The translations under genes were made by a program, and so were the position numbers. A stretch of 64,000 nucleotides of DNA, from positions 3,616,001 through 3,680,000 of the forward strand of contig OZ241917.1 in assembly GCA_965203805.1 (NCBI GenBank). The letters are read 5' to 3'. The stretch's first letter is position 1. The number at the start of each line of letters is the position of its first letter. Positions 22,862 through 40,177 of this stretch are shown here, one piece after another. The DNA comes from Candidatus Latescibacterota bacterium (GTDB lineage Bacteria > Latescibacterota > UBA2968 > GCA-2709665). A model generated the notes under the pieces. It searched no databases, was not told where the DNA came from, and worked only from the letters and a program-made list of their open reading frames with translations.

Positions 22862-23092
22862 CGGCTATTGTCTCGTTCCCGGTCCTGCGGGAGACCCCTC
22901 CGGAAGCGCCGTTTACGGGTTCCCGGAAACGGCGGATTCAACGGCCTCGATCACACCTTCTCCGCACCACGAAGAGCGACCGGTGTTTTCGACAATTATC
23001 GGAAGCGCTCACGGTCGCCTCGACATCGAATTCCCCCGGCTCGGACGCTCGCGACGGGCGTGTTTCGGACGCGGATGACATCCAACGCCTAA

Positions 23093-23283: not shown

Positions 23284-23339
23284 CTAATGTCCGCGATATC
23301 CGTGATCCTGCCCGCGGGCGGCGGGATCTCTCAACATTC

Positions 23340-23720: not shown

Positions 23721-23840
23721 ACGTCAATATAAACGACCGATTCAAGAAGTTGAACCGGTCGTCCCGCGGTAAAACACATTGACAGGAGTCGTATTCAGCC
23801 GGCCTTGTCTGACTTCACGGAAACACCGCCGAAGAAGGGT

Positions 23841-25250
23841 TCAGGCCGACGAGACCTGCTGGACCGTGTTCTGGATGCGGCTCACAAGAGCCTCGAAATC
23901 GGGGTCGGCAGAAAGCCTGGTGGCGATATTTTTGCAGGCATGAATAACCGTTGTATGATCACGATTTCCGAATTCAGTGCCGATTGACTTGAGGGGCGCT
24001 TCCGTAAGCCGTCTGCAAAGGTACATACAGATGTGCCGAGCCGTGGCGATATCCTGCTTCCGGGTGGAACCGGTCAGCATGGTCACGGGGATATTAAAGA
24101 AGCCAGCCGTACCCTTCTGGATCTCCTCGATGCTGATTGCGGGTGACGTGATGGCACTGGCGCGGCCAAGACTCTTTATGGTATGCCTGGCGATATCGAG
24201 GGAAACTGGAGCGCTTTTATATACCGAAAAAGTAATGAGATGGGTCACGGCGCCTTCCAGTTCCCGGATATTCGAATCTACCTGTTCGGCCATGAAACGA
24301 GCGACATCGGGGGGTATCCTGACGCCGTGGTTTCCCGCCTTCTGATTGACAATTGCCATTCGGGTTTCCAGGTCCGGTCGGTCGATATCCGAAACAAGAC
24401 CCCACTGAAACCTAGAAATCAGCCTGTCTTCAAATCCTTTCAGGGTTGACGGCGGCCGGTCGGAGCTCAGGACGATCTGTTTGTTGAGTTGATACAATGC
24501 GTTGAAGGTGTGAATGAGCTGGCGCTGGCAGGCTTCGGTCGTTGCGTGGAACTGAATATCGTCGATGAGAAGAATGTCGGCGTTTCGATAAATTTCGGTA
24601 AATGCGGATGAATCCCTTTTTTGGATGGCTTTCAAATAGTCGGTAAAGAACCTTTCGCCCGTCGTATACACAACGCGCCTGGCCGTGTTGTTGCGAACGC
24701 AATGGTCGGCGACTGCCTGGAGCAAATGCGTTTTCCCGAGGCCCACGCCGCTATAGATGAACAGCGGGTTATAGGATGTCGCGCCGGGCGACTCCGCGAC
24801 GGCTTTCGCCGCGGTGTATGAGAACTGATTGCTCTCACCGACAACGAAATTTTCAAACCGATATCTGGGATTCAGCGGAAAAACGGCTTCGGATACAACG
24901 GCTGGAACGGGGTCTTCTCCGTTTGGCCGGGGATTCGGCGGAGGCGGGGAATCGTCGGCCAGGGTGAAGTCGGGTGGCGACCCCGATGCAGACCGGACGT
25001 CTTTCTTGATGGCAAACCGAATTTCCGGCGTCCAGGAAGTGATTTCTTCTATTACAGACTTGATTAAATCGAGCCAATGCTCTTCAAGCCAGTCTCCGAA
25101 AAAGGAAGTTGGCACCTCAATAGTCGCGAACTCCGCGTCCAGTCGTGGTGACAACGTCTCGGCGAACCATGTACTGTAGGCATCCGCCTCGATTTTCCCC
25201 TCGATTTTCCGCAGACACCTGCCCCAGAGGACGGAAGGATTTTCAACCAT
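23841..25250 (-). CDS. dnaA: Chromosomal replication initiator DnaA
   Basis: LNPRYRFENFVVG, YNPLFIYSGVGLGKTHL, LLIDDIQF, RLISRF, NIRELEGA, RDHTTVIHA. Alternative start at 25268. Confidence 0.98.
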   Translation of the reverse strand: MVENPSVLWGRCLRKIEGKIEADAYSTWFAETLSPRLDAEFATIEVPTSFFGDWLEEHWLDLIKSVIEEITSWTPEIRFAIKKDVRSASGSPPDFTLADDSPPPPNPRPNGEDPVPAVVSEAVFPLNPRYRFENFVVGESNQFSYTAAKAVAESPGATSYNPLFIYSGVGLGKTHLLQAVADHCVRNNTARRVVYTTGERFFTDYLKAIQKRDSSAFTEIYRNADILLIDDIQFHATTEACQRQLIHTFNALYQLNKQIVLSSDRPPSTLKGFEDRLISRFQWGLVSDIDRPDLETRMAIVNQKAGNHGVRIPPDVARFMAEQVDSNIRELEGAVTHLITFSVYKSAPVSLDIARHTIKSLGRASAITSPAISIEEIQKGTAGFFNIPVTMLTGSTRKQDIATARHICMYLCRRLTEAPLKSIGTEFGNRDHTTVIHACKNIATRLSADPDFEALVSRIQNTVQQVSSA

Positions 25251-25567
25251 AAAGACAAAACCACCCATACATTAGCGAGGGACATGCGCCGTCGCTAAGC
25301 TCTATTTACAATACAAAAGAGAGTTGGCGGGGAAGAATGCCGACGCCCAGCCAGAAGCCAGAAGATCATCTATGGAGGGAGTATTGCAGAAGATATTCTG
25401 GGGGGATGGAATTCACGGCAGAGAAAGAGGTGAATTCCTTGCAAACGGACAATACGAAGGCCTGCCGGTTGCAGACAGGTCTCTTGGAAAAAGAGGGAAT
25501 AATAAAAGTAATGATCAAGATGCAGGGGAGTCGCCGAAGGAACTGGCTCGGCAAAAATGACGGCGCC

Positions 25568-25596
25568 AAACTAAAGAAGAGATCTGCAAAAGTCAA
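25568..25596 (-). promoter_or_regulatory. Candidate dnaA promoter
   Basis: TTGACT-17 bp-TAGTTT. Confidence 0.55.
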
Positions 25597-25734
25597 GCCC
25601 TTTCTGGAAGAAAAATCTCTTTATTTTTCGACAATCATCTTCCGACATCGATATACCAGATAATGTATATTTGATCCAATAAACACACCATGTAGTAGAG
25701 ATTTTCGTGATCTCATGGAGACCTATGAAATCCC

Positions 25735-25763
25735 TTGACAAAGATTCCTTCCCCATCTATATT
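25735..25763 (+). promoter_or_regulatory. sigma70-type promoter of the rpmH operon
   Basis: TTGACA-17 bp-TATATT. Confidence 0.8.
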
Positions 25764-25830
25764 CATAAGTTGCTACAATTCATTTAGATACAACAACGGC
25801 TGTTCTCTGCGCAACGCACGGACAAGGGTA

Positions 25831-25965
25831 ATGAAGCGGACGTTCCAGCCCAGCAACCGGAAACGAAAAAACAAGCACGGCTTTCGCCACCGCATGCGAA
25901 CCCCGGGCGGGCGTCAGATATTCTCCAGGCGCCGGCGCAAGGGCCGCGTACGGATCTCGCTCTAA
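25831..25965 (+). CDS. rpmH: 50S ribosomal protein L34
   Basis: [22 protein letters not shown]...RRRRKGR. Confidence 0.98.
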
Positions 25966-25969
25966 AACG

Positions 25970-26329
25970 ATGAGGCCGGGCGCCGGATTGCGGAGCGAGG
26001 TTCACAATCTCCGGCGGACCGGATCGTTGTTCAGGGGTCGCTGGTTGCATGTCCGTGCAGGCAATTCCTCAGAAGATCGCATTATCATCTCCGTGCGCAA
26101 GCGGTTTGGCAAGGCCGTCGCGCGAAATCGCGCACGGCGGCGAATTCGCGCCATCTGCAGGGAAATGGCTCCGCACCGCGGCACGGGTCATCTGGTCATC
26201 ATATCCGTTGGCGACGGATCGGCCGCTGCAGGGTTCCGGGATCTGCGCAGAGACTTGATCGCTGCGTTTGGTAAACTGGGTCTTCTCCACGGGTCGGCCA
26301 TCCCGCCGATGGGATTGCGTCCTCGTTGA
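25970..26329 (+). CDS. rnpA: Ribonuclease P protein component
   Basis: SVRKRFGKAVARNRARRRIR (RNR motif); follows rpmH. Confidence 0.92.
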   Translation: MRPGAGLRSEVHNLRRTGSLFRGRWLHVRAGNSSEDRIIISVRKRFGKAVARNRARRRIRAICREMAPHRGTGHLVIISVGDGSAAAGFRDLRRDLIAAFGKLGLLHGSAIPPMGLRPR

Positions 26330-26513
26330 ATCGCCCTCCGCTTTTTCTTCGGATGCGTGTTGCCCCCCGTACCATGCCCCCGTCAGTGTTCTGATCCGGT
26401 AACAGATTGCCGAAATCCGGTCGATGAGTCGCCCGGCTGCGATAGCGGGGCACTTCCACGGGCTCACGTTCCTGTCTGAAACTTGCAGATCCGCGACATC
26501 ACAGGTCTGACGA

Positions 26514-28211
26514 ATGGACAAGCGTACAATTCTCGCCTTTATCCTGATCGGTCTGATCATCATTCTCTATCCCCATTACATGGAGTGGATCATGGGCGAT
26601 CCGCCACCGGTCCCACCCCCGGAACGGATCCCCTCCGAAAGGCTTGGAACGCCGCCTTCCCCACCGCCGGAATCACCCGTCCGACAACGCGAGATCCGGC
26701 AACCCGAGATCGCGCGGGAGGCCTCCGGCGACATCTCGTCCGGACAGCGGCGCGGCCGGATCTCTCCGGGAGAATTCATTCCGCAAGACGTCGTTGTAGA
26801 GACCGATCTCTTTACCGCCACGTTCAGTACGCGGGGCGGGGTGTTAACCCGGCTTCGGCTGAAGGCGTATGAACATCCGGACGGCGGGGAACTGGATCTG
26901 ATCGCACCCGGGAGCGCCGCGCTGGGCCTCTCTCTGGCCGGCGAATCGCTGGATGCATACGAGTTTTCCACGGACACGCCACGGCTCACGCTGGTCGGAG
27001 CGGAGCAGGCCGAGTTGATCTTCAGGGGTCAGCTGGGAACGCGCACGATTGAAAAGCGGGTCCGGTTTCAGGGCAACCGGTACCGGGCGGATTTGGCAGT
27101 GGCCGTTTCCAGATTGGATCCGCAGGAGAAGCTGGGCGTGGCATGGTCGGGCAGTCTGGCCGATACGGAGAACAACCCTGAAGAGAACGCATTCTATATG
27201 TCGGTTGTCACACGCGCGGGCGGCGAAGTCGAGACCTGGGACGTGGAGGACCTCGGACCCGACGGCGACCCCCCGCCCGGCGGCCGAATCTCGTGGGTCG
27301 GGATACGGAACAAATATTTCCTGGTTGCGCTGATTCCGCCGGAAGGCAGCTATGGCCTGAACCTCGGCGGCGAACCGCGCGATTTCGCCGAATGGTACGA
27401 CGTCGAAATCCAGGCAAAGGACGTCGATCCGGGGCAACGGTACGGTGTATATTTCGGTCCGATCTCCTACGATCGGCTCCGGCAGCAGAATCAGGATCTT
27501 TCGGGCAATTACCGGGAATTGGAGATGGAGGAGTTCATGGAGTATGGCTTCGCCATATTCCGGCCGATCATCAAGCCCATCACCAATCTGAATCTCCGTG
27601 CGTTCCTGGCGCTTCATCCGCTGATCCCGAACTACGGCCTGGTGATCATCGTATTCTCCGTTCTGATCAAAATCGTGGTGTTTCCACTGACGCACAAGAG
27701 TCTCGAGGCTGCCGCGAAGATGCAGCAGTTTCAGCCCAGGATCGCCGCGCTGCGCGAGAAGTACCCGGACGACCAGCAAAAAGTCCAGCGGGAGATGATG
27801 AAGCTCTACAAGGAGGAGGGGGTGAACCCGCTGGGCGGCTGCCTTCCGATGGTCGTCCAGATGCCCATCCTCTTTTCGCTCTTCAATGTCTTCCGCGGCG
27901 CGATCGAACTCCGGCAGTCCGAGTTCGTGTTCTGGATTACGGACCTTTCCCAGCCGGACCGGCTGTTCTTCGGGGGATTTGAAATCCACCTCCTGCCGCT
28001 GCTGATGGCGGTCTCCACGTTCGTGCAGTCGAAAATGACCATGAAAGATCCCAAGCAGGCGTTCATGGTCTATATTATGCCCGTTTTCATGATCTGGATA
28101 TTCTGGAGCATGTCCTCCGGCCTGGTGCTTTACTGGACGATGTTCAACGTACTCACCATTTTGCAGCAGCAAGTCATGGAACGCGTGAAACGCGTGCTGG
28201 GCACGCGCTGA
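26514..28211 (+). CDS. yidC: Membrane protein insertase YidC
   Basis: MDKRTILAF, NYGLVII, NPLGGCLP..VQMP, WITDLSQPD, SGLVLYW. Confidence 0.97.
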   Translation: MDKRTILAFILIGLIIILYPHYMEWIMGDPPPVPPPERIPSERLGTPPSPPPESPVRQREIRQPEIAREASGDISSGQRRGRISPGEFIPQDVVVETDLFTATFSTRGGVLTRLRLKAYEHPDGGELDLIAPGSAALGLSLAGESLDAYEFSTDTPRLTLVGAEQAELIFRGQLGTRTIEKRVRFQGNRYRADLAVAVSRLDPQEKLGVAWSGSLADTENNPEENAFYMSVVTRAGGEVETWDVEDLGPDGDPPPGGRISWVGIRNKYFLVALIPPEGSYGLNLGGEPRDFAEWYDVEIQAKDVDPGQRYGVYFGPISYDRLRQQNQDLSGNYRELEMEEFMEYGFAIFRPIIKPITNLNLRAFLALHPLIPNYGLVIIVFSVLIKIVVFPLTHKSLEAAAKMQQFQPRIAALREKYPDDQQKVQREMMKLYKEEGVNPLGGCLPMVVQMPILFSLFNVFRGAIELRQSEFVFWITDLSQPDRLFFGGFEIHLLPLLMAVSTFVQSKMTMKDPKQAFMVYIMPVFMIWIFWSMSSGLVLYWTMFNVLTILQQQVMERVKRVLGTR

Positions 28212-28223
28212 GGATTTGTCCCG

Positions 28224-29579
28224 ATGAGACCATCGGACCGCGATACCATTGTCGCAATCGCCACCGGTCCCGGCGAGGCAGCGATAGGCATCGTGCGGCT
28301 TACGGGGCCGGAGGCGGTAGGAATCGCCTCCGGTTTTTTTTGTGGCGCCCGTGAATTGCGCCGTATGGAGGACCGCCGCCTGATGTATGGAAGGTTTGTG
28401 GTTGGAGACCAGGACCTGGACGAGGTGCTGGTCTCTGTCATGAGGGGTTCCAGGTCGTTTACGGGCGAAGACACGGTCGAATTCAACTGCCACGGCGGCC
28501 CTCTTCTTCTGCGGCGCGCGATGGAAGCGCTGATCTCGGCGGGCGCACGCCCCGCCGAGCCGGGCGAATTCACCCGGCGGGCATTTCTCAACGGCCGAAT
28601 CGATCTCACCCAGGCCGAAGCAATTTCGGATATGATCACCGCCCGGGCCGACCGGAGTCTTCGGTCCGCCTATTTCCAGTTGCGCGGCGGTTTGAGGGCC
28701 CGGTTCGAAGATCTGGCGGAAGCCCTGCGGGATTTGCTGACATTGATCGAGGCGGGACTGGATTTTTACGAAGACGCCGGTGTCGAACAGGACGCCATAC
28801 GTCCGTCGATCGTGCGGGCGGAAGGGGAAATAAAGCGGCTGGTCGCATCCTATCAACACGGCAAAATCATACGAGAGGGCGCCCTGGTGGCCCTCGCCGG
28901 CCCGCCGAACGCCGGCAAATCGAGCCTGCTCAACCGGCTGCTCGAGGAGGACCGCGCCATCGTTTCGCCGGTTTCCGGCACCACGCGGGATACGATTGAA
29001 GAGTCGATCACTCTGGACGGCATTCGCGTCACGCTGGTCGACACTGCCGGAATTGCGAAGCCGCGTGACGATATTGAGCGGGAAGGCGCGCGACGGTCCC
29101 GAGACGCGATTGCGCGGGCCGGCCTTGTGCTGCTGATCGTGGATGCATCCGTCCCCGCGGCCGGCGGGCTGGAGGCGATGGTAGAGGGCGTGACTCCCGG
29201 TAACGTGCTTCTCGTCAGGAACAAGAAGGATCTCGGCCTCCACGCCGACTGGCGGACGGGCAGCCCGTTTCAGGGTCTCTCCACCTCCGCCCTCACGGGG
29301 GAGGGCCTCGACAGACTCAGAGAGTGTGTCCTCGGGCGCGTGATGGCGGAATCCGATCCCGAATCCGGCGTCGTAACGCACGCGCGGCACGTGGAGGCGT
29401 TGCGACGGGCGGGAGACGCGCTCGGCCGGGCAACCGGAGCGCTTGACGAGGAACTTCCCGGTGAGGTGGTGGCGGTGGAGCTGCGGGAGGCGACCGACGC
29501 GCTGGCCGAGATTGTCGGCGAGACCACGTCGGAGGACATCCTGGACCGGATTTTCAGTACGTTTTGTATAGGCAAATAG
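28224..29579 (+). CDS. mnmE: tRNA modification GTPase MnmE
   Basis: DTIVAIAT, GEFTRRAFLNG, GPPNAGKSS, GTTRD, DTAG, NKKD, C-terminal FCIGK. Confidence 0.97.
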   Translation: MRPSDRDTIVAIATGPGEAAIGIVRLTGPEAVGIASGFFCGARELRRMEDRRLMYGRFVVGDQDLDEVLVSVMRGSRSFTGEDTVEFNCHGGPLLLRRAMEALISAGARPAEPGEFTRRAFLNGRIDLTQAEAISDMITARADRSLRSAYFQLRGGLRARFEDLAEALRDLLTLIEAGLDFYEDAGVEQDAIRPSIVRAEGEIKRLVASYQHGKIIREGALVALAGPPNAGKSSLLNRLLEEDRAIVSPVSGTTRDTIEESITLDGIRVTLVDTAGIAKPRDDIEREGARRSRDAIARAGLVLLIVDASVPAAGGLEAMVEGVTPGNVLLVRNKKDLGLHADWRTGSPFQGLSTSALTGEGLDRLRECVLGRVMAESDPESGVVTHARHVEALRRAGDALGRATGALDEELPGEVVAVELREATDALAEIVGETTSEDILDRIFSTFCIGK

Positions 29580-29590
29580 CCAAAAAGCGG

Positions 29591-29715
29591 TAAGACGTGA
29601 GACGGTAGACGGTAGATGACATCCTTGTCCGATTGGTTATTCCCTTATGCCTCCGGCAAGAAATGAAACCGAACAGGCAATGATATCCTCTCACGTCTTA
29701 CGTCTCACGTCTCAC
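29591..29715 (+). repeat. Dispersed ~120-bp element bounded by inverted heptamer arrays (GTGAGAC...GTCTCAC), copy 1
   Basis: Core aligns by eye with 37671-37786. Confidence 0.8.
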
Positions 29716-29725
29716 CCGTTTGTAA

Positions 29726-29741
29726 TGTTCCACGTGAAACA
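29726..29741. promoter_or_regulatory. parS: parS centromere site
   Basis: TGTTCCACGTGAAACA, an exact match to the TGTTNCACGTGAAACA consensus. Confidence 0.92.
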
Positions 29742-29798
29742 TGGCATCCAATACAGGGAATTGTCGCGTTGCTTCCGGCGGACGCGTGTGGAGGAACG

Positions 29799-30443
29799 GT
29801 GACGGATCAGGAGTTTCTGACGGCCGCCGAAGCGCTGTCCGTCCCTCTGTCTGAAGAACAGGCCTCGCGGTTTCTTCGATATGAGGCGCTGCTCCGGTCG
29901 TGGGCGGAACGGGTGAGACTGGTGTCCCGGGGAGACCGGGACAGAATCAGGGAGCGCCACTTTATCGAGAGTCTGCGGGTGGTTCGCTTTCTTCCGGAAG
30001 GGCGGATTTCGCTCCTGGATCTGGGATCGGGCGCGGGTTTTCCGGGTGTTCCGGTCAAAATCGCCCGGCCGGATGCCGATGTCGTGCTTCTGGAGTCGGC
30101 AAGAATGAAGGCGCTCTTTCTGAAACGCCTGGTCGTTGAACTGGAAATGGAAGGGCTGTCCGTTTTGCCCGAGCGGGCGGAGGTTGCCTGCAAACGGGAG
30201 GAACATCGGGGGAGATTCGATATTGTAACGGCGCGGGCAGTGGGCTCGCTGCCGGTCCTGTGGCGCCTGTCGTCAGGATTCCTCAGGAAGGGTGGCGAGC
30301 TGTTCGCGCTCAAGGGGCCCGGCGCAGGCCGGGAGGCGGAGGAATTCGGCTCGGACGGCCCGGTTGTGACCATAGAGCGCGGTGCGCCCGAGGTCCGGCG
30401 AAGGGACACGGTTCTCGTCAGGGCTACCGCGCGTTTGGAATGA
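29799..30443 (+). CDS. rsmG: 16S rRNA m7G527 methyltransferase
   Basis: RHFIESL, LDLGSGAGFPG, VTARAV, LKG. GGAGG RBS before the GTG. Confidence 0.95.
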   Translation: MTDQEFLTAAEALSVPLSEEQASRFLRYEALLRSWAERVRLVSRGDRDRIRERHFIESLRVVRFLPEGRISLLDLGSGAGFPGVPVKIARPDADVVLLESARMKALFLKRLVVELEMEGLSVLPERAEVACKREEHRGRFDIVTARAVGSLPVLWRLSSGFLRKGGELFALKGPGAGREAEEFGSDGPVVTIERGAPEVRRRDTVLVRATARLE

Positions 30444-30842
30444 TCACTCGGCCTGAACGAGTTCGATCAGGACGCCCGATGCGCTCCGGGGATGGACGAA
30501 AGCCACCCGCCGGCCGAGCGCGCCCGTGCGGATTCCGCCGGCGATCGCGAGCCCCCGGTCCTTGCATGCTGAGACGGCGGCATCGATATCCGGTACCCGC
30601 ATGGCGATATGGTGCAGACCCTGCCCCTTTCTGGAAAGGAACCGTGCCAGAGAACTCCCTTCGTGCGTCGGTTCCAGGAGTTCGAGCCGGGTCAGGCCGG
30701 ATCCGCCCAGAAATACCACACGGACGCCTTCCGCTTCCACGGTTTCTTCGTCCGTTGTTTCAAACCCGAGCATCGCATAGACGGCCAGTGCCCGGTCGAT
30801 CCCCTCCACCGCGATGCCCACATGATCCACGTGTCCGTCCAC
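30444..30842 (-). CDS. mce: Methylmalonyl-CoA epimerase (VOC fold)
   Basis: DHVGIAV, LELLEP, GLHHIA, FVHP..ASGVLIELVQ. Confidence 0.93.
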   Translation of the reverse strand: MDGHVDHVGIAVEGIDRALAVYAMLGFETTDEETVEAEGVRVVFLGGSGLTRLELLEPTHEGSSLARFLSRKGQGLHHIAMRVPDIDAAVSACKDRGLAIAGGIRTGALGRRVAFVHPRSASGVLIELVQAE

Positions 30843-30883
30843 GGTTATCCTCCCGGTCTGTAGGATCCAAAAGCGGAACGCAG
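30833..30883. repeat. 51-bp exact direct repeat with 35666-35716 (mcm 3' end, RBS and mce start)
   Basis: gtccgtccacggttatcctcccggtctgtaggatccaaaagcggaacgcag occurs at both sites; similarity then decays over about 60 more bp. Confidence 0.95.
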
Positions 30884-30961
30884 TCTGTCCGATATTTCGC
30901 CCATGGTCGCGCCGGCTGAACAGGCTGCCACGGACTGCCGGTCCATCCAGTGTCCTGTCCC
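30845..30961 (-). pseudogene. Orphan 3' fragment of a methylmalonyl-CoA mutase gene
   Basis: Translates ...VAACSAGATMGEISDRLRSAFGSYRPGG*, versus ...VAAGLAGATVGEISDRLRSAFGSYRPGG* in the intact gene. Confidence 0.88.
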
Positions 30962-30996: not shown

Positions 30997-32469
30997 CTAG
31001 TTGAAGGGAGAAGCGTTGTGCTGCACGAGCACCCGGTTCATGTCTACCTCAATCGTGACCATCGTCTGGAGCAGGCGCGCTTCGGGGCCTTCGCCGTCGT
31101 ACAGGTTGACCGGCGCGTAGATATCCATTGCGTAGCGCGGCGCCAGCGGAACGAACCCGGGGACGACAGGCAGGGTGCCTGGCCCGCCTTCGCTGATGTT
31201 GGGATTCTGGTCGATTTCCCGCAGCATCATCGGCAGCTTGATTCCGAGGTCGGCGAGTCTCCTGCCTTCCAGGAAGAGGATCTCCTGCCGCGCGAGCCAC
31301 AGCGAATGCCACAAGTCGGATGCTTCCGTCAGGGCCGTGACGCTGTCGGCGTCGAGTGATGTTCCGGAAATGTTGGGGATCGCGAGTCCGTCGCCCGGAC
31401 GCTCGAGTACCAGGCCGGCCCGGTAGGGGCTGTCGGAATCGGACCGCACGAGGATCTCGGCGTCGCGCGGACGCAAACTCAGGTCGGCGTTGCGGCGCTC
31501 GTCGATATCGTCGAAGGAGACGGTGCCACGGGTTCCGGCAAGGCGTATGGCGCTGGCCAGTTGGCGCTTCGCCCCCGCGAGATCCCCCGATGCCAGCGCG
31601 ACCTCAGCCAGGATCAGGTGCATTTCCTCGGCCTTGGCGACGGGTATTGCCGACGCGCGATCCGTGTACTTGGGGTCCAGGAAGTCGAGCCGGGGCAACG
31701 GCTGCATCTCCTGCAACGCCCTCAGCACCAGGAAATCCACCGGCCTGTTGGTGATCGAACTCCCGTCGTATGGAGGCGCGAAGAGGAACTCCGAGTCGGC
31801 GGAAAGCACAGCGTTGGCTGCTGCCGTCGCTCCTCCCCTGTCACCCTGCAAACGGTAGGCGCGCGCAAGCGCCGCGTTTGCCTGCGGTCCGAACCCCACC
31901 GCCGCCTGCAGGTCGGTCACGGCCCGGCCAAGCGCAACGTCGGAGGGTTGCGGAGTACCGTCCTTCTCAAGCGGCACGAAGGAGAAGATCTCGCCCATGG
32001 TCAGGTAGGCCATTCCCCGGTAGTAGCGGGCCTCGGCCACCAGTTCCGCCGGCGCCCCTGCTTCGTTCGGCGCGATCTCGTCGATTACGAAATCGGCCAG
32101 CGCCCGTAGCTCCTGGACGTTCCAGTACACCCCGGTGGCGCTCGTCCCCGTCGAGTTCATTATGTCCGGGGTGATCTCGTTGGGGGCGTCCAGGGTCTGG
32201 ATGAGCCCCGTGCCATGGATCGAATAGTTGTCGGTCACGACCTCGGCGACGACGTAAGCGTTGACGAGGCGGGCGAACTGCGCCCTGAGCCCGGGCAGGA
32301 GCGCCTCGGTCGTGTTGGTGGCCTGCGCCAGGTCCTCGTGGGTGGTGGTCGGATTATTCACCCGGGTGGGATTTATGGCGTCACAGCCACCGGCCACAAG
32401 GACGCCGAGAAGCATCACGGCCATGGTCGGCAGTCCCCGTCTCAGGATCGAAACGTTCATGTTCATCAT
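30997..32469 (-). CDS. SusD/RagB-like outer-membrane lipoprotein
   Basis: Lipobox VAGG-C; EARYYRGMAY, AEEMHLILAEV, RQEILFLEGRRL.D; lies downstream of susC. Confidence 0.85.
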   Translation of the reverse strand: MMNMNVSILRRGLPTMAVMLLGVLVAGGCDAINPTRVNNPTTTHEDLAQATNTTEALLPGLRAQFARLVNAYVVAEVVTDNYSIHGTGLIQTLDAPNEITPDIMNSTGTSATGVYWNVQELRALADFVIDEIAPNEAGAPAELVAEARYYRGMAYLTMGEIFSFVPLEKDGTPQPSDVALGRAVTDLQAAVGFGPQANAALARAYRLQGDRGGATAAANAVLSADSEFLFAPPYDGSSITNRPVDFLVLRALQEMQPLPRLDFLDPKYTDRASAIPVAKAEEMHLILAEVALASGDLAGAKRQLASAIRLAGTRGTVSFDDIDERRNADLSLRPRDAEILVRSDSDSPYRAGLVLERPGDGLAIPNISGTSLDADSVTALTEASDLWHSLWLARQEILFLEGRRLADLGIKLPMMLREIDQNPNISEGGPGTLPVVPGFVPLAPRYAMDIYAPVNLYDGEGPEARLLQTMVTIEVDMNRVLVQHNASPFN

Positions 32470-32502
32470 GCTGTCTGTTCTCCGTTGGACGCAGGCCATC
32501 AG

Positions 32503-32693
32503 CCTTAATGCGACAGATTCAGCAACGCGGCGTCGCGACAAGACCCTTCGAATTGGGCCGAAAAGGTCTTCCGGAAGGACAATTTTTCCGTTCACGTCCA
32601 GTGACCTGAAGGATCATAGAAATCAGCAGTTAAATCGCCTTTATTCACTTGCACATTTTCGAATTAACGTCCCCGAATAATGACGAATCAAGG
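32503..32693 (-). mobile_element. 191-bp MITE-like element, copy 2
   Basis: Reverse complement matches 23093-23283 without gaps (157/191 by hand count). Flanks are CTAA and CTGA; the TAA is the susC stop. Confidence 0.85.
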
Positions 32694-35675
32694 TTAGAAG
32701 ACCACCTCGACACCGAGCTTGAACTGCCGGTTCGGCGAGAGTGTCGTACTGGTCTCGCCTCCCAGCTGCAGTCCGCCGCCGGAAAGCCCGTTGAGTTCGC
32801 CGTCGACGATCCCGTTGCGGGACCATATCCACAGGTTGCGGCCACTCGCGAGCAGCGAAGCACGGCCGGCGCTGATGCTCCCGGCAACTGCCTCCGGCAG
32901 CGCATACCGCACCGCGACCTCCCTGAGCTTGAAGAAGTCACCGTCGTAGAGGAAGGCGCTCCGCGCGGCGTTCTGGCTGTACTTGCCCATCGCGGAGCCG
33001 TTCTCGTCGTACCGGATCGGGAAGGCGTATTCGCAGCCGTCGTCGGCGCCCTCTTCCATCCCGCAGCGTACGCGCTCACGACGGTAGATGCCGTTGAAAG
33101 TTGCCCAGACCGAACCCCAGTCGAACACCTGATGACCACCGGCCCAGTCGGCCAACGCACTGATCGTCAGATTGTTGCCGATCGCGATCGTGCTGTTGAA
33201 GCTTCCGCTCTTGTCCGGAACCGGAAATCCGCCGGTGAACCGGCGCTCGGAGCCGTCCGGCAAGCCGTCGCCATTGGTGTCTACCGGCATGGTCACCCAC
33301 CATGCGCCGACTGGACCTCCGCGGCAATCCCCGTCTACCATCCTCCAGCAGCCGGTCACACGTTTCTGGGAACCGTCCGCGCCGAAGTCCGCCACGCCGC
33401 CCATGTCGGTGACTTCATTGTGAGTGTAGCGGAACGTTCCACCCAGGCGCCAGGCCAGTTGCCTGGTGTTCAGAATGTCCACGTTGGCGCTTAGTTCAAC
33501 CCCGCGGTTCAGGATCTCACCCACGTTCTCCTGCTGGGTGCCCTGCCCGGTAACCGGCTGGCGGGGCACCTGGAACAGCGCGTCGGTGGTGCGGGCGTCG
33601 TATACCGTCAGGTCGATCCCGACCCGGTTGTTCCAGAGTGCGGCGTCGATTCCGGCCTCGATCGTGGAAGTCTTCTCCGGGCGAAGTTCAGCGTTGCCCG
33701 GGTTGGCAAACCTCGGGGCCGACTCCCCGCGGAAGGAGATGGCCGAGAAGGTCCGGTCCTTCAGAAAGGCACCCGGGAACCGGCCGGTCTGCCCGTAGGC
33801 GGTCCGGAGCTTGAGTTCGTCCACGAAAGGAAGGCTGACGTCGTCCGAGAGGATGTACGACCCGGTGGCCTTGGGATAGAGTTCCGTGTCGATATTGTCT
33901 CCGAAGCTGGAGCCGGCGTCGATGCGGAACCCGCCTCCGAGGTAGAGCTTGTTCCAGAAGCTGAGTTGTTCGTCCACGTACAACCCGCCGTTGAACACCT
34001 CGATGTTGATCTCGAAGGCGGTAATCTCGGCCGCCGCGTCGAAGTCGAAGGAACCTGGGAGGGCGAAGCCCAGCCCGTTGCCGTTGATGATACTCTCGTC
34101 TTTGCGAAAGCCCTGCACGCCCACGGTGAGCGAGGACCCGATGCTCCCGCCCGGGTTCTCCCACGCGTAGGTCGCGCCCGCGTCGAGCGACACCGAGGTG
34201 AAGGAGCGGTCCCGCCGGTTGAGTTGTCCGGTGGGTTCGCCCGGCGTGAAGCCGATCGGTTGGTAGATCCGCTGCTGGTTGCTCCGGTTGTCGCTGCCCA
34301 CCGTAAGCCTGGCGGTCAGGTCGTCGCGGATGTTCCAGCGGGCGCCAACGGAGAAAATGAACCTGTCGACCCATTCGTCGATGTCGGGCATCAGGAAGAT
34401 TTCGTGCGCCTCCTGGAGGGTGGCGGCTCTGGAAAAGAAGAGGGCGTCGCCGACCTCGAAGGTGGTGATGGGATCCGCGATGGAGGAACCGTTGTAGAGC
34501 CGCTGAAAGTTGTGGCGGACGTAGCTGCCCGAGAACTCCAGGGTGAAATCCTCGCGGACGGACGCCTGCAGGCCGCCCCGCAGGTTGTAGTTGGTGCTGG
34601 CATCCTTGGGCTGGCTGCCGGTGCGGTCCGCGAGGCGGCCGCTGACGCTGTACGTCACGTTGGCGGTGCCTCCGTTGACGCCGAGGTAGTAGCTCTGGGT
34701 CCGACCGTTCCTGAAGTGCTGATCTTCCAGGAAGGTGGCCGTGACCTCCCCGGACTCGACCCGGTCCGGGAAGATCACGCCGGTATCGAAGATGTACTTG
34801 AGTTCCGGCACCTCGATGCCCTGCTCTACGCGGGCCGTAATGCGCGGCGCCCCGGGGGTGCCCTTCCTGGTGAAGATCTGGATTACCCCGGTTGCGGCGT
34901 CGGAACCGTACAGAGTGGAGGCGGCGCCGCCCTTGGTGATCTCGATGCGATCGATGTCGCTGGTGAGCAGGTCGGCGAGCGCGGAGGACTGCTCGCCCCC
35001 GGTGCCCGCGGCGGTCGACTGGTCGTTGTCGACGCGCACCCCGTCCACGTAAATGATCGGGGTCTGGGCGCCGAACACCGAGGAAATTCCCCGGAAGTTG
35101 ATCAGCGAGCCGGTGCCCGGCTGCGCCGAGGTGGCGTTGACGGTCGCGCCCGCGACGCGGCCTTGAATCAGCTGGTCGACGGACTGGACTGGCGCCAACG
35201 CGATGTCTTCGGTTGAAAGTACATCGACCGACGCGCCCAGGGCGCGCCGCGCGGTTTCGGCCCCCACACCGGTCACGACGATTACGTCGAGCGCGATCGC
35301 CGTTGGCGACATCTCGAATTCGATGTTGTGTGTCTCCCCGCCACCGACGGTCACGGTCTGATAGGCTTCACTGTACCCAATATACGTCGCGCGCACGGCC
35401 TGTTCGCCGACGGGAACATTGAGAAGCGTGAAACGGCCTGCTGCGTTGGTGAGTTGGCCGATTCCGGTACCCGTTATGAGGACCCGTGCATCGGCGAGGG
35501 GACGCCCGGATGAGGCGTCCAGGATCTGGCCCGTGATTACGCCGGTCCGACTTTCGGCCGTCGCCGGGGCCCAGCCTGCGATCGCCACCAGCACGGTCAA
35601 GGCGGCAATCGCAACACCCCTGAGTAGCGACTGACTGTGGATGATTCCCCCTTTGCGGCGCGCTCGTCCGTCCAC
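32694..35675 (-). CDS. SusC/RagA-like TonB-dependent receptor
   Basis: Signal peptide, carboxypeptidase-regulatory-like N-domain, plug motif IDRIEITKGGAASTLYGSDAATGVIQIFTRKG, LRPEKT, C-terminal Phe. Confidence 0.93.
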   Translation of the reverse strand: MDGRARRKGGIIHSQSLLRGVAIAALTVLVAIAGWAPATAESRTGVITGQILDASSGRPLADARVLITGTGIGQLTNAAGRFTLLNVPVGEQAVRATYIGYSEAYQTVTVGGGETHNIEFEMSPTAIALDVIVVTGVGAETARRALGASVDVLSTEDIALAPVQSVDQLIQGRVAGATVNATSAQPGTGSLINFRGISSVFGAQTPIIYVDGVRVDNDQSTAAGTGGEQSSALADLLTSDIDRIEITKGGAASTLYGSDAATGVIQIFTRKGTPGAPRITARVEQGIEVPELKYIFDTGVIFPDRVESGEVTATFLEDQHFRNGRTQSYYLGVNGGTANVTYSVSGRLADRTGSQPKDASTNYNLRGGLQASVREDFTLEFSGSYVRHNFQRLYNGSSIADPITTFEVGDALFFSRAATLQEAHEIFLMPDIDEWVDRFIFSVGARWNIRDDLTARLTVGSDNRSNQQRIYQPIGFTPGEPTGQLNRRDRSFTSVSLDAGATYAWENPGGSIGSSLTVGVQGFRKDESIINGNGLGFALPGSFDFDAAAEITAFEINIEVFNGGLYVDEQLSFWNKLYLGGGFRIDAGSSFGDNIDTELYPKATGSYILSDDVSLPFVDELKLRTAYGQTGRFPGAFLKDRTFSAISFRGESAPRFANPGNAELRPEKTSTIEAGIDAALWNNRVGIDLTVYDARTTDALFQVPRQPVTGQGTQQENVGEILNRGVELSANVDILNTRQLAWRLGGTFRYTHNEVTDMGGVADFGADGSQKRVTGCWRMVDGDCRGGPVGAWWVTMPVDTNGDGLPDGSERRFTGGFPVPDKSGSFNSTIAIGNNLTISALADWAGGHQVFDWGSVWATFNGIYRRERVRCGMEEGADDGCEYAFPIRYDENGSAMGKYSQNAARSAFLYDGDFFKLREVAVRYALPEAVAGSISAGRASLLASGRNLWIWSRNGIVDGELNGLSGGGLQLGGETSTTLSPNRQFKLGVEVVF

Positions 35676-35677
35676 GG

Positions 35678-37534
35678 TTATCCTCCCGGTCTGTAGGATC
35701 CAAAAGCGGAACGCAGCCTGTCCGATATCTCGCCGACCGTCGCACCGGCCAACCCTGCCGCCACGACCGCTTCCGTAATCGACCCCGCGCCCCGCGCCCG
35801 CCGTTCGATTTTGTCCAGCGCAGCCTGCGCGGCGTCGGAATCCCGCAGGCCCCGCGACCGCCTCAGGTCAAGCTTCTGCCTGTGTTCCGAGTCCTGTGTG
35901 GGCTGGAACGTCGAAACCGGCGTTTCCGGGTCTCCCTGAAACCGGTTCACCCCCACCACGACGGTCTCGCCGGACTCGATCTTCTTTTGCGCATCGTATG
36001 CCGAGTCCGCGATACAGGCCGCCGTAAAGCCGTTTGCGGCCGCCTCCCCGGCTCCCCCCTCCCGATCGACCGCTTCCAGTACGGCCAGGGCTTCCTCCTC
36101 CAGCGCATCGGTCATTTTTTCAACCGCGTACGACCCTCCCATGGGATCTACGGTATCCGGGATGCCGCTTTCGTAGGCCAGGATCTGCTGGGTACGTACC
36201 GCCAGCTGCGCCCCCGTGTCCGACGGCAGGCCCAACGCTTCATCGTACGCGTTGACGTGCAATGACTGGGCGCCGCCCAGAACGGCGGCCAGCGCCTGCA
36301 GCGTGGTCCGTGCGCAGTTGTTCATCGGCTGCTGGGCCGTGAGGGTCGAGCCCGCGGTCTGGGCATGGAATCTCAGGCGCCTGCAGCGCGGGTCATTCAC
36401 GCCAAGGCGTTCCCGGACGAGGCGGCTCCAGAGTCGCCGCGCGGCGCGGAATTTGGCGATTTCCTCCAGAAAATTGTTGTGAACGCCGTAAAAGAAGGAA
36501 AATTTCGGGAGGAACCGCTCCGGCTCGAGGCCTGCCGCGGTGGCGGCGTCGGCATACGACAGGGCGTGGGCGACCGTAAAGCCAAGCTCCTGTGCGGCGG
36601 TTGCGCCGGCCTCCCGCATGTGGTAACCGCTGACGCTGATTGGGTTCCACTTTGGCGCCTCCCTGAGACAATAGTCCATCAGATCCACCACCAGGCGCAT
36701 CGAGTCGGCAATCGGGAAGACATATGTTCCACGTGAAACATATTCCTTGAGAATATCATTCTGGACCGTGCCGGTAAGCGCCCGCGAAGGCAGTCCGCGT
36801 TTCTTTCCGAGGCCCGCGTAGAACGCGAACAGGATGCAGGCTGTCGCGTTGATCGTCATGGATGTGCTGATGCGGTCCAGCGGGATTCCATCGAACAGGG
36901 TATCCAGGTCCCAGAGCCCGTCTACCGCCACGCCCACCCTGCCAACCTCGCCGCCCGCGTTTGGATGGTCCGAGTCGTACCCCATCTGTGTGGGCAGGTC
37001 GAACGCCACGCTCAAGCCGGTCTGGCCCCGGGCAAGCAGATCGCGAAACCGGGCATTGGTCTCCGCGGGAGTGGAAAATCCCGCGTACTGGCGGAAGGTC
37101 CAGAGGCGGCCGCGATACATGGAGGGATAGGCGCCGCGGGTGAACGGGGGTTCGCCCGGGCGTCCGATCCGGTCCGGAGCGTCGCGGCCGCCTCCGTCTC
37201 CGCTGCCCCGTGCCCCCGTGGGATTTCCTTCGCTATCGACGCCGCCGTCGCACCTCGCCGCGCTTTCGGCGGGGTCGGCAAGCACTCCTGCCATCCGGTC
37301 GAACAGGCGCCTGGCCTCTGCCGAGGCGGCGCGCTGCCTGTAGGCCTGTAACAGCAGGGTTCCGGAGTCCAGGCCAAGGGCGGCCGCCAGGTCCAGGCAT
37401 CGCTTGTCTGAAGGAATTCGCTTTCCGCTCTCGATCTGTCCGATATAGGTGCCCCAGACGCCGATCCTTTCACCCAGCCCCTGCTGGCTGAACCGGCCCT
37501 GGCGAGCCTTCCTGATCAAATCGCCGAAAACCAT
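35678..37534 (-). CDS. Methylmalonyl-CoA mutase substrate-binding subunit fused to an N-terminal XRE-type HTH
   Basis: Mutase motifs PFTRG.YPSMY, RQYAGF, GLSVAFDLPT, GTVQNDILKEY, SGYHMREAG, GGAQSLH. N-terminus FGDLIRKAR...SQQGLGERIGV...YIGQIESGKRIPS. No DxHxxG B12-binding domain. GGAGG RBS before ATG 37534. Confidence 0.9.
   Translation of the reverse strand: MVFGDLIRKARQGRFSQQGLGERIGVWGTYIGQIESGKRIPSDKRCLDLAAALGLDSGTLLLQAYRQRAASAEARRLFDRMAGVLADPAESAARCDGGVDSEGNPTGARGSGDGGGRDAPDRIGRPGEPPFTRGAYPSMYRGRLWTFRQYAGFSTPAETNARFRDLLARGQTGLSVAFDLPTQMGYDSDHPNAGGEVGRVGVAVDGLWDLDTLFDGIPLDRISTSMTINATACILFAFYAGLGKKRGLPSRALTGTVQNDILKEYVSRGTYVFPIADSMRLVVDLMDYCLREAPKWNPISVSGYHMREAGATAAQELGFTVAHALSYADAATAAGLEPERFLPKFSFFYGVHNNFLEEIAKFRAARRLWSRLVRERLGVNDPRCRRLRFHAQTAGSTLTAQQPMNNCARTTLQALAAVLGGAQSLHVNAYDEALGLPSDTGAQLAVRTQQILAYESGIPDTVDPMGGSYAVEKMTDALEEEALAVLEAVDREGGAGEAAANGFTAACIADSAYDAQKKIESGETVVVGVNRFQGDPETPVSTFQPTQDSEHRQKLDLRRSRGLRDSDAAQAALDKIERRARGAGSITEAVVAAGLAGATVGEISDRLRSAFGSYRPGG
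36725..36740. promoter_or_regulatory. parS: parS site inside the mutase coding sequence
   Basis: TGTTCCACGTGAAACA, with the palindrome extended by ATA...TAT. Confidence 0.88.
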
Positions 37535-37670
37535 CGCCGAAGCCTCCATTCGGGAATCGCGGCACCGGATAATGCGAACGCGACGCCGGGACCGGGTAAA
37601 CACACGCTTGTGTGTGTGCAGATCAAGTATAAAATACTGTTTTTAAATACGTTTATAAAACCTGAAACCG

Positions 37671-38105
37671 GTGAGACGTGAGACGCAAGACGGTAGATGA
37701 CGTCCTTGCACGATTGGTCATTGCTCTATGCCGCTGGTATGAAATGAAACCGCACAGGGCAGGCAATCTCTCACGTCTTACGTCTCCCCGCTCTTCAGGC
37801 ACTCACAGTATCTCACGTCTCACGTCTACCCTCTCACCGCCCTTAGGGAATTTGAGGAGATGTGGACGTTGAGTTTTATTCTTGGTTTTGATTCTAACTG
37901 ACGGCTGAATTCTGGTTTGTTGGGGCCTGCCTGCAGCGCCTGTCTGCGTGCGTACACGCACAGGCAGGCAGTACGCTACGCAGGCAGGCAACCCTTGTGG
38001 TTGCCCGCCTTTCGCGTGTTTCCGGGTTTCCTTTGTGTCTTTGTGTCTCCGTGTGAGCAGATTTTCGCTTCAAGCCGACTGCTGAACGCCGATGGCTGAA
38101 AGCTG
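37671..38105. repeat. Compound repeat region: heptamer-bounded element copy 2, GGGAATTTG unit, nested CCTGCCTG palindrome, CTTTGTGT short repeats, GCTGA heptamers
   Basis: Each unit recurs elsewhere in the window (29591, 39731, 5208, 39908, 44920). Confidence 0.8.
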
Positions 38106-38109
38106 CCTT

Positions 38110-38967
38110 TCAACCCGAAACGACCGTATTCTCGAGCCGGCCGATGCCGTCGACTTCGCACACGACGCTGTCGCCAGCCTTGAGCCAGAGTTGCGGCTCC
38201 CGGGCCATTCCGACGCCCGGCGGCGTGCCCGTAAATATCAGGTCTCCCGGCTGGAGGGTGACAACCCGGGACAGGTAGGCGATCAGCTGGTCGACCTTGA
38301 AAATCAGTTGCGCGGTATTCGAGTCCTGTACGGTCTCGCCGTTCAGAATACAGCGAATATCCAGGTTATGGGGATCGCCCGCCTCGTCGGGGGTGACAAG
38401 TTCCGGGCCCAGCGGCGCGAAGGTCTCGAAGGTTTTGCCCAGCAGCCATTGGCCGCCGGGTTTTTCCAACTGAAAGTCCCGCGCGCTCACGTCGTGGCCC
38501 ACCGTATAGCCCGCGACGTGGCGCATCGCATCGGATTCGGGGATATCCTTTCCCGCCGTTCCGATGACAACAACCAGTTCGACCTCATAGTCGATGGAAC
38601 TGCTGATCGACGGCAGGCGGATCGCGTCGCCGGGTCCGATGATGGTGGAAGAGAACTTGGAAAACACCACGGGCTCGGATGGAATGGGCATATTGCTTTC
38701 CGCAGCATGGTCCGCGTAGTTCAGGCCGATGCAGAGGATCTTTTCCGGGTTCTGGATGGGCGCCACCACGCGGACGGCGCCGGTGTCGATGCCCTCGCCC
38801 CGCGCTGCCGCCGCTCCCGCCGCGGCCAGAGCGGCCGGCCCCGCCTCCAGCAGACCGACCATGTCCGACGGAATGCCGGGATCGACGCGGCTCACGTCCA
38901 CGATCGTGTCTCCCGACCGGACGCCCACGCGTCGCGATCCCTGGTGTTCGAAAGTGAGCAATCTCAT
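38110..38967 (-). CDS. Fumarylacetoacetate hydrolase family protein
   Basis: KILCIGLNYADH, IDYEVEL, HDVSARD, GKTFETFAPLGP, TGTPPGVG. Confidence 0.95.
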   Translation of the reverse strand: MRLLTFEHQGSRRVGVRSGDTIVDVSRVDPGIPSDMVGLLEAGPAALAAAGAAAARGEGIDTGAVRVVAPIQNPEKILCIGLNYADHAAESNMPIPSEPVVFSKFSSTIIGPGDAIRLPSISSSIDYEVELVVVIGTAGKDIPESDAMRHVAGYTVGHDVSARDFQLEKPGGQWLLGKTFETFAPLGPELVTPDEAGDPHNLDIRCILNGETVQDSNTAQLIFKVDQLIAYLSRVVTLQPGDLIFTGTPPGVGMAREPQLWLKAGDSVVCEVDGIGRLENTVVSG

Positions 38968-39289: not shown

Positions 39290-39995
39290 AGGGTAGGCGT
39301 GAGACGGTAGAGGATAACGTTACCACAGTGTTTTCACGCTAACCGTGCCTGTTTCTCTACCGTTATCGTAACGACAAGAAAATCCATCGTGCACTCATAT
39401 CGTCTCCCGTCTCCCCGCCTTTAGGGACCTACCCCCTAACCCCCTTCCTGAGAGGAAGGGGGAACGGTGACGGATCGATGGACTAGGCATGCAAATGTGC
39501 CGGGTGGCGATTCGCTGTCAATCAGAGTATCTATAGATGACCGGCCCGCGGCGCCTGGTCTTACTCCCCCTCTCCCCGCGGGAGAGGGGGCCTGCCTGCC
39601 GGTGGTTTTTCGGCAGGCAGGGGGGAGAGGTCTGCGCGCCGATCGCCGGAAGATTTCGTCCGGCCATATCAGTGCCCCGTGGCCGCAGGTTATCATCTCC
39701 CGTCTACCGTCTCCCCTCTCACCGCCTTCAGGGAATTTGGGGAAAAGGGGATTTTGAATTAGGTTTTCGCTTTTGCTTCAAGCTGACGGCTGAATGCTGA
39801 CCGCTGATTGCTGCTTTTCGACGGCAGGGAATTTGGGGAGACGTGGAAGTTGAAGTTGATTTTCGGCTTTGATCCTTACTGACAGCTGTCGGTTGACTGC
39901 TCTGTTTCTCTTTGTGTCTTGGTGTCTTTGTGTGAGCTGATTGCCGTTTTTGATCTTTGCTGACGGCTGACTGCTGACTGCTGAGAGCTGGTTTC
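39290..39995. repeat. Compound repeat region: REP-like doublet, heptamer arrays, two GGGAATTTGGGGA units
   Basis: Units are shared with 37671-38105 and 44400-45035. Confidence 0.75.
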
Positions 39996-40177
39996 TTCTG
40001 CTTCCCCACCGGCCCGTAAACCCTGTCATCCCGCGTCAACCGCTCCGTCCGCGCCGGTTCCGCGACCCAAATTTTCCCTTGCTCCCCTCCGGCGATTATT
40101 CTATATTTCCGCAAATCTGCGATGGGCGTTATCGCGCCCTGAAATGCGATAATCCGGGCAATGGAGAATGCTGGCTC

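Follow-up and report, generated by a model that had tools for sequence, protein, structure and literature searches.

An XRE-type helix-turn-helix head fused in frame to the large subunit of a putative split methylmalonyl-CoA mutase in one genus of Latescibacterota

Fusions of enzymes with regulators are thought to be the source of many ligand-sensing regulators. PutA, BirA and NadR are working enzyme-regulators that control their own pathways, and in regulators of the CarH/LitR type a MerR-type helix-turn-helix (HTH) is joined to a B12-binding domain that acts as a light sensor. We describe here a gene on the complementary strand (35678..37534) of a 64,000-nucleotide stretch of the genome of a Candidatus Latescibacterota bacterium (contig OZ241917.1, positions 3,616,001 to 3,680,000; "the window"), which encodes an XRE-type HTH head, a linker and the large subunit of a methylmalonyl-CoA mutase in a single uninterrupted open reading frame (ORF) of 618 codons plus stop; the enzyme probably also acts as a regulator. 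In the sections of the published account drawn on here, BzdR has an XRE head (residues 1–90), a linker and a shikimate-kinase-like domain (131–298) that binds benzoyl-CoA; benzoyl-CoA on this C-terminal domain releases the head, and the linker is needed for the signal (PMC3602430). The same sections describe the Q1 chimera, in which the BzdR head is joined to the active Escherichia coli shikimate kinase to give an enzyme and regulator in one, and have both BzdR and Q1 binding DNA as dimers via the head (PMC3602430). The archaeal RbkR, as presented in an excerpt of PMC5397151, is likewise an enzyme-regulator with a DNA-binding domain of its own.

A first-pass annotation of the window had read this gene as one ORF with a ribosome-binding site at the start of the HTH, an XRE-like N-terminal domain, a Gly-rich linker and a mutase barrel lacking a B12-binding domain, and all of these elements were recovered. 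The start codon is the ATG at 37534, and 8 nt 5' of it stands a Shine-Dalgarno sequence, GGAGG (37543..37547, same strand, as are all parts of the gene), read from the sequence; GGAGG or GGAGA together with an ATG is found at the equivalent position in 14 of the 15 genomes of the genus, the exception (G053) having an alternative upstream ATG owing to a frameshift. Residues 1–68 (37331..37534) make up the XRE-type HTH domain, with a match to HTH_3 (PF01381) of 33.3 bits at residues 7–56 (Pfam cut-off 23) and five helices in an AlphaFold2 model (residues 3–11, 17–24, 28–35, 43–53 and 57–68; predicted local distance difference test score, pLDDT, 80–88). A sixth helix occupies residues 69–90 (37265..37330), modelled at 72–86, and is the last part with homology to a free-standing regulator (see below), up to the sequence LLADP. 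Residues 91–120 (37175..37264) form a variable Gly/Asp-rich linker, recognized by its length variation, substitution rates and low pLDDT; the model has residues 89–153 disordered (pLDDT <50). The remainder, residues 121–618 (35681..37174), corresponds to the substrate-binding barrel of a split methylmalonyl-CoA mutase, with 647.9 bits to MM_CoA_mutase (PF01642; residues 125–612, profile positions 27–512, cut-off 22.1) and 647.1 bits to NCBIfam TIGR00641 (cut-off 303.8). Pfam finds no B12-binding domain in the protein. The motifs FGDLIRKAR, YIGQIESGKRIPS, RQYAGF and GYHMREAG are all present in the translation. The AlphaFold2 model was built from a shallow alignment of 19 rows, and its barrel is only moderately confident. 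The head has weak sequence matches to DNA-binding XRE structures (8tac, C.BclI, C.AhdI and P22 C2), and a predicted complex of two copies of residues 1–95 scored 0.28 against a mark of 0.42 for self-association. A longer ORF from the GTG at 37603 was considered; the ATG at 37534 is preferred for its ribosome-binding site and as the start of all homologues. An internal start that would give a head-less mutase finds no support: two species have Ile or Val in place of Met81, and no ribosome-binding site is conserved in the linker.

The fusion is genuine, in frame and fixed across the window's genus (here g1). In a six-frame search of 168 Latescibacterota species genomes, all 15 members of this genus proved to encode head and barrel within a single open frame. 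Besides the window's own genome (G000), 12 of them match from query residue 1–3 through 618; G058 has two matching pieces within one 630-aa frame with a very short linker, and the match of G053 begins at residue 11. When residues 1–125 were used as the query of a word-seeded search through 5.8 billion proteins, 11 clusters were returned out of 1919 candidates, and each of the 11 has both PF01381 and PF01642 and a length of 601–692 aa; they stem from other assemblies, and the concern raised in the first-pass annotation, that the fusion might occur in this assembly only, can be set aside. Contigs from public sequencing runs were compared with the window over 35600–38200. One DNA contig from another study (X4, 2094 nt) spans 35696–37700 with 23 substitutions and no gap, which also speaks against the stop or frameshift in the linker that the same annotation had envisaged; a second (X6, 1733 nt) covers 36164–37907 and has indels solely upstream of the ORF. 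Runs with sequence of this genus (X4, X6, X7) are sponge, coral and marine metagenomes. Because all 15 genomes hold the two parts in one frame and an independent contig is free of gaps, the fusion is not an assembly artefact. Contigs of an RNA library (X18) cover 36745–37059, 37138–37334 (linker) and 37400–37572 (head), which is compatible with expression of the fused gene; the library may hold DNA.

As far as seen, the fusion is confined to this one genus of Latescibacterota. Among the best 150 of 21,309 mutase representatives in a library of 1.84 billion proteins, none aligns to query residues 1–66, and none of the 17 N-terminally extended representatives scanned from those 150 carries an HTH in its extension. 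The extensions are instead Glyoxalase_4 (2), a B12-binding domain before the barrel (3), FBPase_C (1) and Biotin_lipoyl (1), the rest having no extra N-terminal Pfam domain; one match that began at query residue 67 (P0112) has FBPase_C, not an HTH, as its N-terminal domain. We found no description of an HTH-bearing or DNA-binding acyl-CoA mutase in open-access full text (supplements not covered), and nothing relevant there on Latescibacteria and methylmalonyl-CoA. The earlier statement that no enzyme-regulator fusion is known for acyl-CoA mutases agrees with both the open-access papers and the 17 extended mutases.

The head has relatives that are not fused to anything. A homologue of residues 1 to 88–106 only, 50–65% identical and in an open frame of 173–456 aa (mostly 173–204), is encoded in 32 of the 168, all of them outside this genus and belonging to other genera and families. 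The 22 such regulators that we extracted are proteins of 165–167 aa. Free-standing homologues score 30.5–51.8 bits for HTH_3, and in an alignment of nine free-standing and four fused sequences the first ~90 residues match the fused head up to LLADP. Their C-terminal part, a helical domain of ~70 aa that has no Pfam match, is absent from the fused protein; a look-up of the free-standing regulator in the ESM Atlas returned only generic HTH_3 clusters, with no hint on this C-terminal domain. The regulator gene sits exactly where the fused gene does, near dnaA and between an FAA-hydrolase-family gene and rsmG-mnmE-yidC; the order in relatives is FAA hydrolase, then regulator, fused gene or unfused mutase, then in some an epimerase gene, then rsmG, mnmE and yidC. 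By this homology, residues 1–90 are the predicted DNA-binding head of a regulator that is free-standing elsewhere in Latescibacterota at the same position.

The other partner is found unfused at the same place in the sister genus g4, where both genomes have a mutase of 558–563 aa followed by a Glyoxalase_4 gene; this mutase matches query residues 119/121–614 at 64% identity. Unfused relatives retain an N-terminal arm of ~55–70 aa (…EEWREGL…TYLDKIGFPG…), and in the fused protein the linker leads directly into RIGRPGEPPFTRG. In the genome of the window tblastn finds neither a second copy of the regulator (the next best match, E = 6e-5 to 0.05, is an unrelated XRE protein) nor a homologue of the regulator's C-terminal domain. 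Since the head comes from a neighbouring regulator with an unrelated context, an accidental fusion by deletion is its likeliest origin. In the simplest history, the common ancestor of g1 and g4 would have had a mutase-epimerase pair just downstream of the regulator gene. In g1 a deletion would then have joined regulator codon ~90 to mutase codon ~55, taking with it the 3' half of the regulator (the C-terminal domain) and the first ~55 codons of the mutase (the N-terminal arm), and in g4 the regulator would have been lost and the mutase left unfused.

Since the fusion, both ends of the protein have been kept. Ratios of nonsynonymous to synonymous substitution rates (dN/dS; Nei-Gojobori method, NG86) were calculated for 14 g1 species (91 pairs; G053 was left out for its odd N-terminus) and, for the free-standing regulator, 15 species of genus g11 (105 pairs). 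The median is 0.170 for the fused head (residues 2–84), 0.843 for the linker (85–120) and 0.126 for the barrel, and 0.123 and 0.114 for the head and the C-terminal domain, respectively, of the free-standing regulator. Head and barrel are thus both under purifying selection, as regards the HTH an answer to the first-pass annotation's call for its dN/dS, and the linker is near-neutral; the span between the conserved blocks varies from ~10 to ~36 residues within g1, always in frame. Fused head and free-standing protein share one set of invariant positions, GVWGTYIGQIE.G.R.PS among them; the recognition-helix stretch GVWGTYIGQIE does not vary at all across 14 fused sequences and hardly varies across 22 free-standing ones. 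Low dN/dS together with the same invariant positions means that the head has been kept, and in the same way as when it was part of a regulator. From the conserved recognition-helix stretch we infer that the head binds DNA, and we lean, by a modest margin over an even chance, towards a head that has kept the ancestral specificity and acts on transcription, its own locus being the likeliest target.

Another role for the head would be to stand in for the deleted mutase arm, as a dimerisation or partner-docking module with no part in DNA binding. The fusion did remove the ~55–70-aa arm that unfused relatives and solved mutases have, and purifying selection by itself is silent on which surface of the head is constrained. 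We nevertheless consider this improbable: the invariant pattern, recognition-helix stretch included, is that of the free-standing regulator, and the model places no contact between head and barrel and leaves the linker disordered.

On the enzyme side, the fused gene is the sole PF01642 match in the genome of the window (5.87 Mb in a single contig, scored 99.8% complete). The small subunit, whose gene the first-pass annotation proposed to locate, lies at 2.635 Mb, ~1 Mb from the fused gene, where a 130-aa B12-binding protein (PF02310, 96.6 bits) adjoins MeaB (259.8 bits); B12 subunit and MeaB are thus available in trans, not in cis. A carboxyltransferase of the propionyl-CoA carboxylase type is also encoded. 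As separate observations on B12 in this genome, a second B12-binding domain is part of a 256-aa protein at ~5.038 Mb, between other ORFs and unrelated to the mutase, and the single cobalamin riboswitch is at 3,524,628–3,524,799. The best solved matches of residues 121–615 are the large subunit of 2-hydroxyisobutyryl-CoA mutase, HcmA (4r3u, 498 bits), and human methylmalonyl-CoA mutase (MCM; 2xij, 465 bits). Tyr150 (RQYAGF), Arg268 (YVSRGTY) and Tyr304-His305 (GYH), which we take to be methylmalonyl-type specificity and catalytic residues, have identical counterparts in the alignment with human MCM, whereas in 4r3u Tyr150 and Arg268 are replaced by Ile and Gln. The Tyr that the first-pass annotation used as a mark of methylmalonyl-CoA specificity is therefore present, as in human MCM, its role being taken from general background. 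The N-terminal arm before PGxxPFTRG is missing: profile positions 1–26 are absent, and alignments to structures in the PDB begin at chain residues 64–80. In solved mutases this arm contributes to subunit contacts.

The single gene copy, the intact partner genes and the dN/dS of 0.126 make it very probable that the barrel is catalytically active, and by inference it is a working subunit of a split-type methylmalonyl-CoA mutase. The opposite case, a mutase body that is no longer an enzyme and now serves as a ligand-sensing domain, is the end-state seen in BzdR, where, in the part of that account used here, enzyme domains have turned into sensors (PMC3602430), and the lost arm would suit it. We regard it as very unlikely here. 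No other PF01642 gene could supply the activity in this genome, the genes for the B12 subunit, MeaB and the epimerase are intact, the barrel's dN/dS is low, as an enzyme's should be, the signature residues for substrate and catalysis are retained, and the 648-bit profile match is full-length except for the arm.

The explanation that we prefer as a whole, to which we give somewhat better than an even chance, is that of a working mutase alpha subunit carrying a retained regulator head. The fused protein would be the cell's functional alpha subunit, working with a small subunit that binds B12 and with MeaB as chaperone; the head would retain its ancestral DNA specificity, so that the enzyme takes on the regulator's job, probably controlling its own locus; and the mutase body would replace the regulator's lost C-terminal domain, presumably its dimerisation or sensor part.

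The DNA upstream of the gene was examined for a possible target. The first-pass annotation had proposed 37535–37670 as an operator region; what this interval holds is one conserved palindrome with the look of a hairpin, ACACAC-GCTT-GTGTGTGTGC (ACACACGCTTGTGTGTGTGC), at 37600..37619, 65 nt upstream of the start codon. It is the sole candidate cis element that we can name, and falls short of a callable operator. Beside it is an AT-rich block (37620..37664) that is kept within the genus in a by-eye alignment of 14 congeneric regions, and between this block and the upstream gene, at approximately 37665..38060, lie one or more multi-copy repeat elements, over which the depth of metagenome contigs rises from ~19–34 to several hundred or more (10- to 40-fold), with many loose ends at 37665/37670. 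The elements have GAGACGTAAGACG-like units, and related repeats fill the upstream regions of several congeneric genomes. We note that at 39400–40114 the ORF translations of both strands contain peptide-like repeat units (…SAVS.KQK… and …SPLSPPSGNLGKRGF…), the latter of which recurs at 37678–37872; this is probably more intergenic repeat DNA. A scan of 37400–38200 found no sigma-70 consensus promoter, and the RNA-library contigs end at 37572, short of the palindrome; such contigs cannot define a transcript end.

If one mismatch is allowed, the palindrome can be seen ahead of the fused gene in 14 of the 15 g1 genomes, the fifteenth locus offering only 410 nt of upstream sequence to the scan. Its distance from the start codon is −82 to −85 in six genomes and −592 to −1103 in the other eight. 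Measured from the stop codon of the FAA-hydrolase gene it is ~145–170 nt away in most of the g1 genomes examined and ~245 nt in one, and in G000 and G050 repeat elements lie between that gene and the palindrome. Its perfect stems range from 5 to 14 bp across the genus. The (AC)n flanks are species-specific yet complementary (TCCACACAC/GTGTGTGGA, TCAACTTACACACA/TGTGTGTAAGTTGA, ATACACACAC/GTGTGTGTAT), and between strains the (GT)n arm differs by dinucleotide steps (+TG in run X6, −2 in run X7), X6 having in addition a 13-nt deletion in the AT-rich block (all at 37608–37632). The general form ACACAC-N2-8-GTGTGT has four sites in the 5.87-Mb genome, whereas 20 first-order Markov simulations gave 0.8 +/- 1.1 and in no case as many as four. 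Of the other three sites, one is inside a region of repetitive ORFs, one in the gap between the gene of an EamA transporter and one of the NIF3 family, and one on the downstream side of genes for phosphoesterase and transglycosylase. As a marker of a regulon the palindrome was discarded, there being only these four sites and none of the other three beside genes of the mutase pathway.

The same palindrome is found in seven of nine free-standing loci, at ~−180 to −210, where it forms hairpin 2 of a conserved, structured ~250-nt element that is intergenic and divergent from the regulator gene (loci L020–L023, L053–L065 and L068–L070). This element starts just downstream of a near-perfect TTGACA-N17-TATATT promoter directed away from the regulator gene and ends, where traced (L022, L023), at a divergent gene whose product of 129–146 aa is a coiled-coil protein. 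It consists of several hairpins with C/U-rich loops (CUCCCCAC, UUCCCCUUUCUCCCC) and a stem GGGGAGGGUAA/UUAUCCUCCCC, and of the 50 pairs that RNAalifold predicts, 18 show compensatory changes (alignment A3). No Rfam family matches the conserved intergenic element at five loci (the window's and three free-standing-regulator loci among them), the only Rfam matches in these loci being chance microRNA or leader hits below the gathering score; the element may be an undescribed leader or small RNA. The genome of the window has neither the leader promoter nor the coiled-coil gene, the sister genus g4 retains a decaying copy of the promoter block and palindrome, and we take the palindrome upstream of the fused gene to be a relic of hairpin 2 of this ancestral divergent leader.

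Several of these observations weigh against a head that binds DNA and controls its own locus. Because its flanks differ between species and stay complementary, the palindrome fits better as an RNA hairpin selected for pairing than as a protein operator; it is 0.6–1.1 kb from the start codon in eight of 14 genomes; and of its four genomic sites none falls at the loci of the small subunit and MeaB or of the carboxyltransferase. By ancestry the head belonged to something other than a mutase regulator, its old context of divergent structured leader and coiled-coil gene being unrelated to the pathway, and with no coiled-coil gene found by tblastn in the window's genome the old neighbours of the regulator are gone. 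The sister genus g4 has no regulator in either of its two genomes, and evidently manages without one. That normal assembly and activity survive the loss of the arm is assumed. Lastly, the loss of 7 nt from a G-rich run at codon ~12 in G053 (L042, ~7990–8010) puts helix 1 out of frame, the upstream ATG restoring the frame; either the assembly is at fault here or the head has begun to decay in one species.

The last observation, and the loss of the regulator in the sister genus without visible harm, could be taken to mean that the head is a neutral passenger, a functionless remnant, or that it is an assembly or frameshift error. This is hardly credible and comes near to being refuted, for all 15 species hold the frame through a linker rich in in-frame indels, the HTH has a dN/dS of 0.17 where the linker has 0.84, and the independent contigs are free of gaps.

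A stronger version of our preferred explanation, and a special case of it, would be a true trigger enzyme, as the first-pass annotation proposed, in which the state of the mutase body (occupancy by methylmalonyl- or succinyl-CoA, docking of the B12 small subunit, MeaB) switches the head's binding to DNA, with the result that transcription would track propionate or B12 status. An XRE head, a flexible linker and an acyl-CoA-binding body are the geometry of BzdR, head and barrel are both under selection, and with the B12 subunit encoded separately an assembly state exists that could be sensed. We think such switching unlikely all the same, given the accidental-deletion origin beside an unrelated regulator and the absence of the palindrome or any shared motif near the small-subunit/MeaB and carboxylase loci; the near-neutral linker (dN/dS 0.84) of ~10 to ~36 residues is a further, mild argument against a precise allosteric connector.

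Upstream of the fused gene stands the FAA-hydrolase-family gene (38110..38967, complementary strand; 285 aa, PF01557, 260 bits), the same neighbour as in all related loci. Downstream, a gene of the Glyoxalase_4 family (30444..30842, complementary strand; 132 aa, PF13669, 85 bits) likely encodes methylmalonyl-CoA epimerase and belongs to the mutase operon; it directly follows the mutase gene in G058, G055, G057, G050, G049 and the sister genus. In the window the two are separated by an insertion (30997–35675) with two genes on the complementary strand, one for a TonB-dependent receptor of 993 aa (32694..35675; plug, barrel and CarbopepD_reg_2 domains) and the other for a 532-aa product that has no Pfam match (30997..32595). 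On either side of it is a copy of a 100-nt direct repeat made of the mutase 3' end and the start of the epimerase gene (30833..30932 and 35666..35765, 88% identical). The genomes G000, G054, G047 and G053 have the insertion; G050, G055, G057, G049 and G058 lack it, although the fused protein of G050 is 92% identical to that of the window. This suggests that the insertion was gained, or was lost through recombination between the repeats. Further along, 21516–30443 is a replication-origin neighbourhood (dnaN, dnaA, yidC, mnmE, rsmG), with a drop in G+C to 52–55% and a cumulative GC skew minimum at 22–26 kb.

The interest of the locus is partly that its history is unusually legible. The donor of the head and both breakpoints can be identified, and every stage is extant among relatives: many genera have just the regulator, the sister genus has an unfused mutase at this locus, and in one genus the fusion is fixed. 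If the head binds DNA, B12-dependent mutases join the enzyme-regulators, and the genus offers a natural system for how allosteric links arise after a fusion; if it does not, an HTH fold has been reused as a structural stand-in for a lost enzyme arm. Should the trigger-enzyme possibility hold, this would be the first DNA-binding acyl-CoA mutase, a natural "missing link" with propionate or B12 status wired to transcription, whose birth by a single deletion and whose unfused sister state are both visible.

Set beside known mutases, the barrel aligns end to end with the split and related enzymes HcmA (4r3u) and human MCM (2xij), and its partner genes are present; it differs in having an HTH and linker in place of the arm, and in that the large-subunit gene is 1 Mb from those of its partners. 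Other mutase fusions (IcmF, epimerase-mutase, B12-domain-mutase) show likewise that the barrel tolerates N-terminal fusions, but their partners are nearly all pathway or cofactor domains and none is DNA-binding. With CarH/LitR the protein shares an HTH tied to B12 biochemistry; here, however, the HTH is of the XRE type and sits on the barrel subunit, with no B12 domain in cis. PutA, BirA, NadR and RbkR have, like it, a metabolic enzyme and a DNA-binding domain in one polypeptide, whereas they regulate genes of their own pathways through a coupling that is experimentally proven; here the head comes from an unrelated neighbouring regulator and would probably act on its own locus.

The layout is closest in kind to that of BzdR of Azoarcus, which in the sections used here also begins with an XRE HTH of ~90 residues, followed by a ~40-residue linker and, at the C terminus, a domain of enzyme fold that binds an acyl-CoA. 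This likeness is one of layout, with DNA binding a prediction in our case, and the protein falls outside the BzdR subfamily, its C-terminal domain being PF01642 with no kinase fold. It also differs, again on those sections, in that the C-terminal domain of BzdR is a catalytically dead relic of a shikimate kinase, and that of the fused protein is a full-scoring mutase barrel present in sole copy. An active enzyme with a DNA-binding head is the intermediate stage that, judging from the same part of the literature, is usually rebuilt in the laboratory, as in Q1 (PMC3602430). By analogy, the fused mutase would match the Q1 stage, occurring in nature, and within the open-access literature searched it adds a previously undescribed case to the enzyme-regulator theme.

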